Shown: positions 26,662 through 29,910 of the stretch, one piece after another
How the letters are laid out: every line of letters begins with the position of its first letter
Numbering within the stretch: the first letter of the stretch is position 1
Origin: Candidatus Omnitrophota bacterium
GTDB lineage: Bacteria; Omnitrophota; Gorgyraeia; JABMRN01; RBG-13-46-9
DNA: 64,000 nt
Direction: 5' to 3'
NCBI GenBank assembly: GCA_013203315.1
Contig: JABMQJ010000012.1
Location: 6,402-70,401 of the forward strand
Program-made: the position numbers and the translations under genes
The notes under the pieces: generated by a model
What the model saw: only the letters and a program-made list of their open reading frames with translations
Told to the model about the DNA's origin: nothing
Database searches by the model: none

Positions 26662-29600
26662 ATGGAAAAGCAAATCAAACATAAGACTAGCTTGAGGCGA
26701 AAAATCGCGTTTCTTATTGTATTTTCCTGTCTTATCGTTATGCTTACAGGTTTTGGGTTGGGGTATTTATGGGGATTCAATTTGTTGCGTACTACAATAG
26801 GCGAAAGCCATGTCAGCATGGCCGATTTAATTTCAGAATCTGTTAGCAGAATTCTCAACGAAGAAGTCTCGGATCTTCACATATACATGTCGCTTCCGTT
26901 ACGCAGGGGCATGATTGAAAAGCAAAATCTCAAATATAGAGGAATGAATGAAGAGGCCGTTAGCAGATATTTTAAAGATATGGACGAAAAGTGGAAAGGG
27001 ACACAAAAAGACAATCCTTTGATCGAAGAATTGTTAGCGACAGAAACCAGCAACAGGTTGAAAAGCTTAGTAGCCGGAGATGCCGGTATTGCAGAAATTT
27101 TCATGACTGATGTGCAAGGAGGGTTAGTCGCTTCCTCAAACAAAACAAGCGATTTTTACCAGGCAGACGAAATCTGGTGGCAAAAAGCTTTTAACAACGG
27201 AAAGGGCGCTGACTTTATCGGGGATGCAGAACTTGATACGTCGTCTAATGTAATAAGCATAAGCTTAGCCGTCCCCATAAGAGGCGATTCAGGAGAAGTG
27301 ATAGGTGCCTGCAAGGCTGTCATGGATGTGAACCGTTTGTTTGAGCCCTTAAAAGATTTTGTTATCGGAAAAACAGGTCATGCAGTGTTGATTAACAAAA
27401 AAGGCGTTATCATTTTTCAAGAGGACATCACACCTTTAAGCCAAAGCCTAACAAGCGAAGAAAATTTGCAAAAAATATTAGAAACCCCAAAAGGGTGGAT
27501 AATTACAAGCAAACCTAACGAGCATAACAAAAAAACATTTATTGCGTTCACGGCAAGCAATTACTCTCTCTTTTTGCGAGAAGGGATACTGTGGAAGGTA
27601 TGCGTAGGCCAAAATGCCGATGAAGTGTTTGCGCCATTGAATACTTTAATGTTTCAGCTTTTTATAGTTGTCATTCTTGCCGCCGCAATTCTTGTTTTGG
27701 CTAGTGCGGTGTTTAGTGCAGCGTTCATTAAGCCGCTAATTGAGCTTCGCAATGCTACGGAGAAAATCGCGAAGGGTGATTTAGACTACCATATAGAAGT
27801 AAAAACGGGCGACGAAATCGAAGAATTTGCCGATTTTTTCAACCGGATGACTGACGAGTTAAAAAAATCTACTAGATCCGTCAGTGCGCTAAATAAAGAA
27901 ATCACCGAGCGTAAGAAAGTAGAATATGCACTTAAAGAAAGCGAGGAAAGATATAGAGTGCTGTACGATTCCTCGCGCGATGCCATTATGACATTGATGC
28001 CCGGGGGGAAATTTTTAAGCGGCAATCCTGCTACATTAGAAATGTTTGGGTGCAAGGATGAAAAAGAATTTATTTCTAAAACCCCAGCTGATTTATCACC
28101 GGAATATCAACCCGATGGGGAACTTTCTAGCGTAAGAGCGAAGCAGATGATGGACATGGCAATGGAAAAAGGTTCGCACTTTTTTGAATGGACGCATAAG
28201 AACGTAGGCGGAAAGAATTTTTTCGCTACAGTATTATTGACCCGAATGAAAATGGGAAATAAAGAATTTTTGCAAGCGACAGTCCGTGATATTTCCGTGT
28301 CTAAGAATATAGAGACTAAAGTAAGGCAAGCAGCAGAAGAATGGCAGCGCACATTTGATTCGATAGCGGATTTGGTATTTATTCAGGATACGAATTTCGT
28401 TATACTGAAAGCAAACAGGGCGTTTGCCGAAGCGATTAAAATGAAACCCGAAGACATTATCGGCAAAAAATGTTATGATTTATTGCATGGTCGGGATAAG
28501 CCATGGCCAAACTGTCCGTTTGAAAAAACAAAACACGACTCGAAGGCCCACACCGAAGAGGTGGACGACCCAAATATTGGCCTACCACTTTCGGTTTCAA
28601 CTTCGCCGATATTTGACAAAAAAGGTAAATTGGTGGGCAGCGTGCATATTGCCCAGGACATAAGAGCCAGAAAGAAAGCAGAGAAAGTCTTTCAGGACAC
28701 AAAAGACGAATTGGAAAAACAGACCTGGGGGCTCAGAAAAAGCAACGAAGCCATCAAGTCTCTCTATAAAGAGTTGGAGGGAAGCAATAAAGAACTCCAG
28801 AAGTTGGACCAATTAAAATCCGATTTCGTGTCAACCGTTTCACACGAATTACGCACGCCGCTATCTATAACTAAAGAAGGCATATCCTTGGTCCTGGATA
28901 GGGTAACCGGTGATATTAGCGGAAAACAGGAAAAAATACTCTCTACGGCAAGGGATAACATAGATCGCTTAGCTCGAATAATAAATGACCTACTTGATAT
29001 ATCCAAAATCGAAGCAGGCAAGGTCGATTTGAAAAAAGCCCTCGTGGATCTTTCAGGTAAGATAAAGGACGACTGCACATTATGGAAAATAGATGCGGAT
29101 AAAAAAAATCAAACCTTACAAATTTCCGTGCCGGATTCCCCGGTTAGCATTTATGTTGATCCTGACAAGATGGACCAAATTCTTCTTAATCTCGTATCGA
29201 ATGCCGTAAAATATACCCCTGATAAAGGAAAAATAAAGGTTGAGTTAAAAGATAAAGAAGGCGAGGTAGAGGTTTCTATTTCCGATACAGGCGTTGGCAT
29301 TGCCAAGGAGGATTTTCATAAGTTATTCGGTAAATTTCAACAGTTCAGCAGGGCCATAGGCCCAGGGGCAAAAGGCACGGGGCTTGGCCTTGCCATTGTT
29401 AAGCAGCTTGTTGAAATGCACAAGGGTAACATACGCGTTGAAAGCGAGCTCCACAAAGGTAGCAAATTTATCTTTTCTATTCCCAAGCTGGATGTTGAAG
29501 AGGTGTTTAGGGAATATATTAGTAGCGGGATAAAACAGGCAGCCGATAGAAAAACGCATCTTTCACTTCTTATTGTGCACGTGGTGAATTTCAAGCAAAT

Positions 29601-29910
29601 TTTTGAAGAGCTGGGCTATGATAAGGCGCACGCTTTACTTAAGGACATTGCGAAAGAGACAAAGGGATCGCTGCGTCGCCGTGCGGATAGCGTGGTAAGA
29701 GATACGGGCGATCTTATTGTGCTTCTATTCGATACGCGCAAGGAAGATGTGGCGGTTGTGAGGAAGAGGGTTGAAAAAACAATTAGCGATTATCTATCCG
29801 GCGGCAAAGAAAAATTTCTTAAAAATATCAGCATAACTTTCGGTAACGCAACATATCCCGATGAGGCAATCACTGATGAGGAATTACTAAAAAAGGCAAG
29901 ACCCGCGTAA
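26662..29910 (+). CDS. Multi-sensor histidine kinase: TM-periplasmic Cache-like domain-TM-HAMP-3 PAS-HisKA-HATPase_c, plus a C-terminal degenerate GGDEF domain with a preserved RxxD I-site
   Basis: 1082 aa. Two TM segments flank a ~280-aa extracytoplasmic domain, followed by HAMP (GDLDYHIEVKTGDEIEEFADFFNRM). H-box SHELRTPLS, G-box GTGLGLAIVKQL. The tail LSLLIVHVVNFKQIFEELGYDKAHALL...RRRADSVVRDTGDLIVLLFDT aligns to [27 protein letters not shown]...RKSDILARYGGDEFAIIMPET of the downstream GGDEF protein. GGDEF is replaced by DTGDL but RxxD is kept. No receiver domain. Confidence 0.85.
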   Translation: MEKQIKHKTSLRRKIAFLIVFSCLIVMLTGFGLGYLWGFNLLRTTIGESHVSMADLISESVSRILNEEVSDLHIYMSLPLRRGMIEKQNLKYRGMNEEAVSRYFKDMDEKWKGTQKDNPLIEELLATETSNRLKSLVAGDAGIAEIFMTDVQGGLVASSNKTSDFYQADEIWWQKAFNNGKGADFIGDAELDTSSNVISISLAVPIRGDSGEVIGACKAVMDVNRLFEPLKDFVIGKTGHAVLINKKGVIIFQEDITPLSQSLTSEENLQKILETPKGWIITSKPNEHNKKTFIAFTASNYSLFLREGILWKVCVGQNADEVFAPLNTLMFQLFIVVILAAAILVLASAVFSAAFIKPLIELRNATEKIAKGDLDYHIEVKTGDEIEEFADFFNRMTDELKKSTRSVSALNKEITERKKVEYALKESEERYRVLYDSSRDAIMTLMPGGKFLSGNPATLEMFGCKDEKEFISKTPADLSPEYQPDGELSSVRAKQMMDMAMEKGSHFFEWTHKNVGGKNFFATVLLTRMKMGNKEFLQATVRDISVSKNIETKVRQAAEEWQRTFDSIADLVFIQDTNFVILKANRAFAEAIKMKPEDIIGKKCYDLLHGRDKPWPNCPFEKTKHDSKAHTEEVDDPNIGLPLSVSTSPIFDKKGKLVGSVHIAQDIRARKKAEKVFQDTKDELEKQTWGLRKSNEAIKSLYKELEGSNKELQKLDQLKSDFVSTVSHELRTPLSITKEGISLVLDRVTGDISGKQEKILSTARDNIDRLARIINDLLDISKIEAGKVDLKKALVDLSGKIKDDCTLWKIDADKKNQTLQISVPDSPVSIYVDPDKMDQILLNLVSNAVKYTPDKGKIKVELKDKEGEVEVSISDTGVGIAKEDFHKLFGKFQQFSRAIGPGAKGTGLGLAIVKQLVEMHKGNIRVESELHKGSKFIFSIPKLDVEEVFREYISSGIKQAADRKTHLSLLIVHVVNFKQIFEELGYDKAHALLKDIAKETKGSLRRRADSVVRDTGDLIVLLFDTRKEDVAVVRKRVEKTISDYLSGGKEKFLKNISITFGNATYPDEAITDEELLKKARPA

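Follow-up and report, generated by a model that had tools for sequence, protein, structure and literature searches.

SgmT of Myxococcus xanthus is a hybrid histidine kinase whose C-terminal degenerate GGDEF domain is a receptor for cyclic diguanosine monophosphate (c-di-GMP); this domain (GGGVF, RHPD and R794) binds the second messenger through its inhibitory site (I-site), and the substitution R763A abolishes binding (PMC3509222). PopA of Caulobacter is a degenerate-GGDEF receptor of the same ligand, with a dead active site (A-site) and a retained I-site (PMC3509222). Histidine kinases are also directly controlled by c-di-GMP in CckA of Caulobacter, where the ligand causes a switch from kinase to phosphatase, and in RavS of Xanthomonas, where it binds the catalytic and ATP-binding (CA) domain itself at Arg656 (PMC6707612). 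Type IVa pili are near-universal in Omnitrophota and are thought to serve host-cell attachment or predation (PMC10066038); neither this paper nor a second one on Omnitrophota that was consulted mentions c-di-GMP or GGDEF for the pili. In this study, a 64,000-nucleotide stretch of Candidatus Omnitrophota DNA (contig JABMQJ010000012.1; hereafter the window, in whose numbering coordinates are given) was analysed around a sensor histidine kinase gene at 26662-29910, the product of which ends in a degenerate GGDEF domain.

An original prediction made for this DNA had described the protein as a giant kinase with a catalytically dead GGDEF tail of the kind that binds c-di-GMP and as a candidate for gating by this ligand, and had proposed that a neighbouring cyclase could supply it. 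Our analysis marginally favours reading the tail as a PopA/SgmT-type c-di-GMP-binding module that would feed second-messenger status to a kinase controlling a pilus operon, as argued from its sequence and from analogy with described receptors. We specifically address the following: (i) the fold of the tail and the loss of its active site; (ii) the conservation of its I-site across the tail family; and (iii) the pilus cluster headed by the kinase and its counterparts in other genomes. The features concerned are collected in Table 1.

Table 1. Positions of the kinase, its tail and the genes of the pilus cluster within the window (aa, amino acids)
Feature	Position	Strand	Residues	Remarks
Sensor histidine kinase gene	26662..29910	+	1082 aa	Open reading frame (ORF) translation, Pfam
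Kinase, sensory half			transmembrane segment (TM) 1 aa 14-38; dCache_1 42-256; TM2 328-356; HAMP 352-401	Pfam; TM1 and TM2 are hydrophobic stretches read by eye
Kinase, cytoplasmic half			PAS 429-483; PAS 559-671; HisKA 719-786 (H728); HATPase_c 833-942	Pfam
Degenerate GGDEF-fold tail, shortened at both ends	29494..29907	+	aa 945-1082	Pfam, AlphaFold2, Foldseek, profile against PDB
Strand beta-1, LIVHVVNF	29569..29592	+		Stands where the metal-binding (I)DxD(N)F motif was
I-site motif, L-R-R-R-A-D	29671..29688	+	aa 1004-1009	RxxD is R1006-R-A-D1009
Shortened hairpin, R-D-T-G-D-L-I	29698..29718	+		Former R-x-GGDEF hairpin; one acidic residue left (D1017)
R1036, third primary I-site residue	29767..29769	+		Equivalent of PleD R390 and SgmT R794
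A-T-Y-P-D-E-A loop	29848..29868	+	aa 1063-1069	Most conserved motif of the tail family
Four tandem single-domain CheY-like receivers	29938..31485	+		Pfam Response_reg, 88-102 bits each
MshEN-domain T2SSE/PilB-type ATPase	31482-33182	+		Pfam
T2SSF/PilC platform protein	33182-34402	+		Pfam
Pilins (three N_methyl), PilX_N + F5/8-type-C protein, PilM-PilN fusion, PilO, conserved 143-aa protein	34646..39376	+
PilX_N + F5/8 type C (discoidin, sugar-binding) minor-pilin-like protein	35939-36790			Conserved in L003, L056 and L057
PilM-PilN fusion	36792-38396		534 aa	PilMN homologues of ~510-620 aa in 49 Omnitrophota-type loci
GAF-histidine kinase	39376-40686	+		Pfam
REC-GGDEF diguanylate cyclase	40687-41556	+		GGDEF 135 bits; IDID, N, D, RKSD and GGDEF all present

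The GGDEF-fold tail of the kinase

A protein deposited from a Candidatus Omnitrophota metagenome-assembled genome (P0001) matches the kinase at 100% identity. The Cache domain of the kinase sits between two hydrophobic segments, and inspection of the sequence shows an H-box (STVSHELRTPL) together with the N, G1, F and G2 boxes. Because the domains, the flanking hydrophobic segments and these boxes are all present, the gene is, by its sequence, that of an intact, membrane-bound histidine kinase with extracytoplasmic sensing. A protein of 1082 aa is large and does not deserve the term giant.

In the full kinase, Pfam GGDEF (PF00990) was matched at aa 947-1080 with 49.6 bits (E 4.9e-13), over model positions 13-148 of 161, and the tail alone scored 54.6-55.1 bits. 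The alignment to Pfam GGDEF that the original prediction had proposed as a check therefore lies above the score cut-off of the model (49.6-55.1 versus 23.8 bits), and the fold matches as well. All 20 homologous tails compared with PF00990 also matched it (E ≤ 0.01, the best being 1.5e-15). A profile built from 20 such tails retrieved solved diguanylate cyclases from the PDB sequences at 1.3e-14 to 6e-6, including 6d9m (1.3e-14), DosC (4zve), GcbC (5euh), YfiN, WspR and PleD (6e-6). The AlphaFold2 model of the tail showed GGDEF topology, with a predicted local distance difference value of 89.7 and a predicted template-modelling score (pTM) of 0.83, and its top 50 PDB matches in Foldseek were all GGDEF domains (query-normalised template-modelling scores 0.65-0.77, with 0.68-0.77 for the best of them). 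The BLASTP alignment between the tail and the product of the REC-GGDEF gene at 40687 covered 134 aa with 26% identity and 5 gaps (E 1e-8). The two sequences are collinear, but the residue-for-residue correspondence that had been claimed does not literally hold. Profile matches and models together identify the C-terminal ~138 aa of the kinase as a true GGDEF fold and a member of the GGDEF superfamily.

The residues of the tail were placed in PleD numbering by our own mapping, through alignment to the REC-GGDEF gene. The active-site replacements were D327 to H973, D329 to V975, N335 to F981 and D344 to H990, and the predicted loss of the metal-binding aspartate from the IDIDN strand is thereby borne out at both D327 and D329. 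Neither the Gly-Gly nor the Glu-Phe of the GG[DE]EF signature is found in the hairpin, which is one residue short: GGDEF corresponds to -TGDL in the HMMER alignment or to TGD-L in that of BLAST. The degeneracy of the hairpin was thus correctly predicted, but its register as DTGDL was not, since profile alignment to solved GGDEF domains gives -TGDL, one residue shorter. The N-terminus of the tail is without the DxLTGLxNR turn, and helix alpha-0 starts 3 residues past the last strand of the ATPase domain; the kinase C-terminus reads ELLKKARPA, and the usual last GGDEF helix is missing. Because the catalytic residues are replaced, the hairpin is shortened and both domain ends are trimmed, synthesis of c-di-GMP by the tail can be excluded from its sequence with high confidence.

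The same losses recur among relatives. A conservation sample of 172 tails, comprising representatives of 50%-identity clusters and closer homologues (~35% pairwise identity; 144 columns), was assembled, and column conservation was ranked by entropy. The G[GAS][DE]EF motif was found in none of the 172 homologous tails, and the hairpin was one residue shorter in 147 of them. Column 973 was occupied by Ser in 65 tails, Arg in 18 and Thr in 13, and ranked 109 of 144.

The state of the former active site also bears on whether the tail binds some other nucleotide, such as guanosine triphosphate (GTP), guanosine tetraphosphate (ppGpp) or a different cyclic dinucleotide, either in the I-site or in what is left of the active site. 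The degenerate GGDEF domain of PdeA binds GTP. A PleD structure with c-di-GMP and ppGpp (9g85) was among the fold matches of the tail, and one acidic hairpin residue is kept in most tails (Glu in 115 and Asp in 16 of the 172). We nevertheless regard such binding as quite improbable: the guanine and metal positions (PleD D327, N335 and D344) have been replaced and are free of constraint across the family, the hairpin is shortened, and the missing last helix is the one that in PleD bears the phosphate-binding K442 and R446 (PMC3509222).

Conservation of the I-site in the tail family

Alignment to solved cyclases confirmed that the RxxD motif (RRAD) is kept five residues upstream of the hairpin, as predicted: R1006-R-A-D1009 aligned with RKSD of the REC-GGDEF protein and with RxxD of 6d9m, DosC and GcbC, and the canonical five residues (SVVRD) separate D1009 from the hairpin. 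The case for an I-site is stronger than the original prediction made it, because R1036, which was absent from that account, is also present.

Across the 172 tails, R1036 was Arg in 165 and Lys in 6, D1009 was kept in 159, L1004 in 153, R1005 in 148 and R1006 in 122. Among the 144 columns, R1036 ranked second, D1009 sixth, R1005 tenth and R1006 36th; L1022 (164 of 172) was also among the most conserved, and the strict triad of RxxD plus Arg was complete in 114 tails. The former active-site columns ranked 109, 135, 116 and 143. Because the I-site columns rank high and the active-site columns low, the sequences show purifying selection on the I-site in an old and stable tail family whose catalytic surface has decayed, and no other result of the analysis speaks as strongly for the core of the original prediction. 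The pattern of a conserved I-site with a degenerate A-site, as in PopA and SgmT, is the receptor signature that had been predicted.

The family is large. An exhaustive phmmer search with the tail returned 3656 representatives (clustered at 50% identity) with E ≤ 1e-3, of which 281 reached E ≤ 1e-10. Among the best 150 representatives, almost every one had the tail at or near the C-terminus, the exceptions running on into a further domain, and a HisKA/HATPase core stood directly upstream in 169 of 176 tail-bearing proteins, the other 7 including six short fragments. Named clusters among the 281 were nearly all Omnitrophota, and Omnitrophota (P0124) was the sole organism name obtained when the clusters of distant members were looked up. 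These figures bear on the idea that the tail is a functionless relic of a former kinase-cyclase fusion, which would accord with the loss of all catalytic residues and with the shortening at both ends. That is very improbable, as the tail is kept on kinases in at least 281 of the 50%-identity clusters, with near-invariant columns at ~35% pairwise identity and a fold that AlphaFold2 predicts confidently.

Some members extend beyond the tail. Five (P0162, P0170, P0179, P0185 and P0188) carry a PilZ domain after a well-conserved tail, and three of these retain LRRxxD. A receiver follows the tail in ten other members (e.g. P0245, P0201 and L025:1061-3751). A remnant tail with PilZ occurs in pilus-cluster PAS-kinases of four loci (L015:2827-4827, L047:1354-3297, L052:1464-3440 and L053:1587-3533); their PilZ domains score 46-57 bits, RxxxR and DxSxxG can be read in L015, L047 and L052, and the RxxD of all four remnant tails is broken by insertions. 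The ATYPDEA loop, which lies before the last helix and belongs to neither the I-site nor the former active site, is lost in these PilZ-bearing remnant tails. Repeated fusion to PilZ, a genuine c-di-GMP receptor domain, gives the family a connection with c-di-GMP that does not depend on the I-site, and is no proof of binding there. Replacement of the I-site by PilZ was considered and rejected: the remnant tails with a broken RxxD fit it, but the five other PilZ members, which keep motifs of the LRRxxD type, leave a simple replacement unsupported.

Several observations weigh against the reading of the tail as a c-di-GMP-binding module. The canonical I-site arginine, R1006, is just 71% conserved, the strict triad is missing in 58 of the 172 tails, and P0010 (locus L006) reads IKGQGR yet has the same operon context. 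The secondary I-site Arg position (PleD R313 by our own mapping; column 959) is mostly Glu. About one third of the examined Omnitrophota pilus-cluster kinases, from the loci described below, are without the tail. PilZ has been added to RxxD-bearing tails, so the tail itself could fail to supply c-di-GMP sensitivity. In SgmT, c-di-GMP changes localisation and neither autophosphorylation nor phosphotransfer (PMC3509222). Finally, the motif that ranks highest in conservation, ATYPD[DE]A, lies outside the I-site, which suggests another, possibly dominant, function of the tail; the most conserved column of all is P1066, identical in 169 of the 172 tails.

Such a function might be that of a nucleotide-free module for protein-protein interaction or dimerisation, in which the Arg and Asp residues would form structural salt bridges and the partners could be the downstream receivers, the pilus ATPase or the GGDEF domain of a true cyclase. 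The position of P1066 outside the I-site would suit such a module, as would the operon context retained by RxxD-less members such as P0010 and the PilZ domains appended to tails that still have RxxD. The precedent of SgmT points the same way, because deletion of its GGDEF domain gives no phenotype and c-di-GMP is without effect on its kinase activity (PMC3509222). Against this stands the placing of three I-site columns (R1036, D1009 and R1005) in the top ten of 144, whereas the former nucleotide-handling surface varies freely. RxxD is generally lacking from degenerate GGDEF domains without c-di-GMP binding, such as those of FimX and LapD. We consider an interaction module possible but somewhat unlikely.

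The pilus cluster and its homologous loci

A pilus cluster of closely packed genes on one strand opens with the kinase gene (Table 1). The four receivers all keep the acidic pocket, D54, T82 and K104, and their sequences make them likely phosphotransfer partners of the kinase; between homologous loci, the number of such receiver genes ranges from 1 to 4. The first receiver reads VKDGE after the conserved Lys instead of the usual VKPF. The PilX_N + F5/8 type C protein may, by its domains, be a pilus-tip adhesin. Genes for a secretin, PilT or a prepilin peptidase were not found inside the cluster (26662-41556).

To place the cluster among relatives, the species genomes of GTDB were scanned with a PilMN profile, which gave 49 further loci, most labelled Omnitrophota and several Planctomycetia or Scalindua. 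The layout of a kinase with tail, two to four receivers, a small or GAF kinase in some cases, MshEN ATPase, PilC, pilins, PilMN and PilO is shared by relatives down to ~35% identity. Kinase types were assigned in those loci whose upstream region is covered. A strong tail was present in the window and in L001-L006, L008, L011, L024, L025, L033, L034, L043, L045 and L055; the pilus-cluster kinase had a weak tail in L009 and L017, and none in L007, L010, L014, L026, L027 and L044.

The REC-GGDEF cyclase had been predicted to close a loop with the kinase by supplying its ligand. In the window and in L057, whose layout is the same and whose REC-GGDEF protein is identical, the pilus genes are followed by the GAF-kinase/REC-GGDEF pair. 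In L056, whose kinase is 80% identical, the window layout is followed up to the GAF-kinase gene, inside which the retrieved stretch ends. Most other loci lack the pair at this place; there, the GAF kinase is found between receivers and ATPase and has no neighbouring cyclase. L016 was the only one of the 49 other loci with an intact GGDEF gene within 10 kb of PilMN. The genes in question (L016:12350-16023), downstream of the pilus cluster, encode a REC-GAF-PAS-GGDEF-HD-GYP protein of 823 aa and a second protein that combines REC with part of a GGDEF domain. Because a cyclase near PilMN is confined, among the loci examined, to the window, the L057-type layout and L016, the proposed loop is not conserved; it is a lineage-specific arrangement outside the conserved system. 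The REC-GGDEF cyclase may well be one ligand source in the organism of the window.

The ATPase of the cluster carries an MshEN domain, a known type of c-di-GMP receptor. The MshEN consensus consists of two 24-residue motifs, (R/K/L)LGxx(L/V/I)(L/V/I)xxG(L/V/I)(L/V/I)xxxxLxxxLxxQ, 5 residues apart. The ATPase matches 17 of the 22 key positions and retains the spacing and most hydrophobic positions; its deviations (R1 to S, L to Q and Q to E in motif I; G3 to R and Q to K in motif II) are conserved across many Omnitrophota loci. The ATPase may be an alternative target of c-di-GMP in the cluster, but the idea that its motifs would be better where the tail is missing was rejected, as they are similarly degenerate everywhere (8-17 of 22) and independent of the tail category.

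Other features of the neighbourhood were recorded. The listed 186-aa ORF at 34917-35477 overlaps the preceding pilin gene; because its N-methylation motif lies at residues 70-86, its true start is probably internal, near 35120. A promoter-like element at 34586-34615 (TTGGCA, an 18-nucleotide spacer, TATACT and an extended -10 TG) lies in the gap of 240 base pairs upstream of the pilin gene at 34646. A promoter and terminator scan of 24800-43300 for operon boundaries was discarded, since the counts equalled the shuffled expectation and matches of the 34586-34615 type were not enriched. Directly upstream of the kinase is a CheR methyltransferase-TPR fusion (24951-26465), with no genes for a methyl-accepting chemotaxis protein, CheA or CheW nearby; L056, which comes from the closest relative, has no such gene at the equivalent place. 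A gene for a retropepsin-like aspartyl protease (gag-asp_proteas / Asp_protease_2) precedes the cluster at 24036-24806, and one likewise precedes the L056 kinase. The scanned genes outside the cluster are mostly housekeeping genes (glycolysis; leucine, arginine and lysine biosynthesis; an oligopeptide transporter of the ATP-binding cassette type; ribosomal protein L13) and include a small HisKA-HATPase kinase with a single receiver at 2478-4040. Outside the cluster, no c-di-GMP genes were found among the scanned window genes, a set from which about ten ORFs (11421-16066 and 55037-62749) were excluded.

Proposed function and comparison with known systems

Binding of c-di-GMP by the tail is putative and is argued by analogy with described receptors. 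If the tail is a c-di-GMP-binding module, it would have been kept for its primary inhibitory site (R1006-x-x-D1009 with R1036) after losing synthesis, and the ligand would be an intercalated dimer, by analogy with PleD, PopA and SgmT. The cellular c-di-GMP level would in this way reach a kinase with extracytoplasmic sensing that stands first in the type IVa pilus operon, and the kinase signal would pass to the CheY-like receivers encoded directly downstream and on to the pilus machinery. The ligand might restrict movement of the CA domain or cross-link the two tails of a kinase dimer, shifting the kinase/phosphatase output; alternatively, it might alter only localisation or oligomerisation, as in SgmT. 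The linker between the CA domain and the tail is ~3 residues long, and a model of the dimerisation and histidine phosphotransfer domain with the CA domain and tail gave a pTM of 0.74. Because this linker is almost nil, an effect on CA mobility or dimer geometry is physically plausible. Gating of kinase catalysis by c-di-GMP, the effect that the original prediction had in mind, is nonetheless an unlikely outcome in our estimate. A wider proposal holds that Omnitrophota kinases throughout the phylum use a rigidly fused minimal I-site domain as an allosteric switch for type IVa pilus activity, in host attachment or predation. In such a switch, c-di-GMP dimers would cross-link or immobilise CA domains and set the kinase/phosphatase output, and the PilZ and REC variants would be elaborations; we treat this proposal as doubtful.

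Textbook receptors for c-di-GMP include degenerate GGDEF domains that carry an I-site, and that general picture is unchanged here; the idea of such a receptor in the tail is likewise not new in kind, as receptors like SgmT and PopA are already known. With respect to the searchable literature, the following are new: (i) the direct fusion of CA to a degenerate GGDEF domain, the minimal shortened form of this domain, and the size and phylum bias of the family; and (ii) the conserved placing of the kinase gene at the start of type IVa pilus operons in Omnitrophota, and the PilZ- and REC-extended variants of the family. Many Omnitrophota pilus operons are headed by a kinase with a c-di-GMP-receptor-like tail, or in some lineages with PilZ. 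In this uncultivated phylum, pilus function is thereby connected with second-messenger and two-component signalling in a way that can be put to experiment, and the study of pilus regulation gains a first point of entry. A CA domain joined with almost no linker to a 138-aa I-site domain is also a compact natural construct for studying I-site control of a kinase, a question left open by SgmT. If the allosteric switch were true, it would be the first case of I-site-mediated control over histidine-kinase catalysis.

The comparison with CckA and RavS concerns the target of the ligand: c-di-GMP acts there on a two-component kinase, as proposed here. Neither has a GGDEF-domain binding site, however, and no homology of binding sites is implied. 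PleD and WspR share with the tail both the fold and the I-site trio (PleD R359, D362 and R390), through which they undergo product inhibition by domain immobilisation. They are active cyclases, by contrast, and the tail family has no conserved counterpart of the secondary site that they use (R313 in PleD, or Arg residues in REC). PssE of Listeria and PelD of Gram-positive bacteria are reportedly degenerate-GGDEF receptors that bind c-di-GMP at the I-site. The logic of a dead A-site and a retained I-site is common to PopA, PssE, PelD and the tail, but these three are associated with response regulators or exopolysaccharide synthases and not with sensor kinases.

SgmT resembles the Omnitrophota kinase in its link to type IV pilus-dependent behaviour and in the conservation of the domain among orthologues. 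SgmT is a cytoplasmic GAF-HisKA-HATPase-REC-GGDEF protein, whereas the Omnitrophota kinase is membrane-bound (dCache-HAMP-PAS-PAS), has no REC domain and joins its CA domain to the tail almost directly. The SgmT hairpin is full-length, unlike that of the tail, which is one residue shorter in a domain shortened at both ends; the partner of SgmT is the DNA-binding DigR, whereas the Omnitrophota kinase precedes four single-domain receivers. With SgmT compared by its description, the Omnitrophota kinase is not an SgmT orthologue, as architecture, localisation and type of partner all differ. The tail carries every sequence-level feature of the degenerate-GGDEF I-site receptor class to which PopA and SgmT belong.

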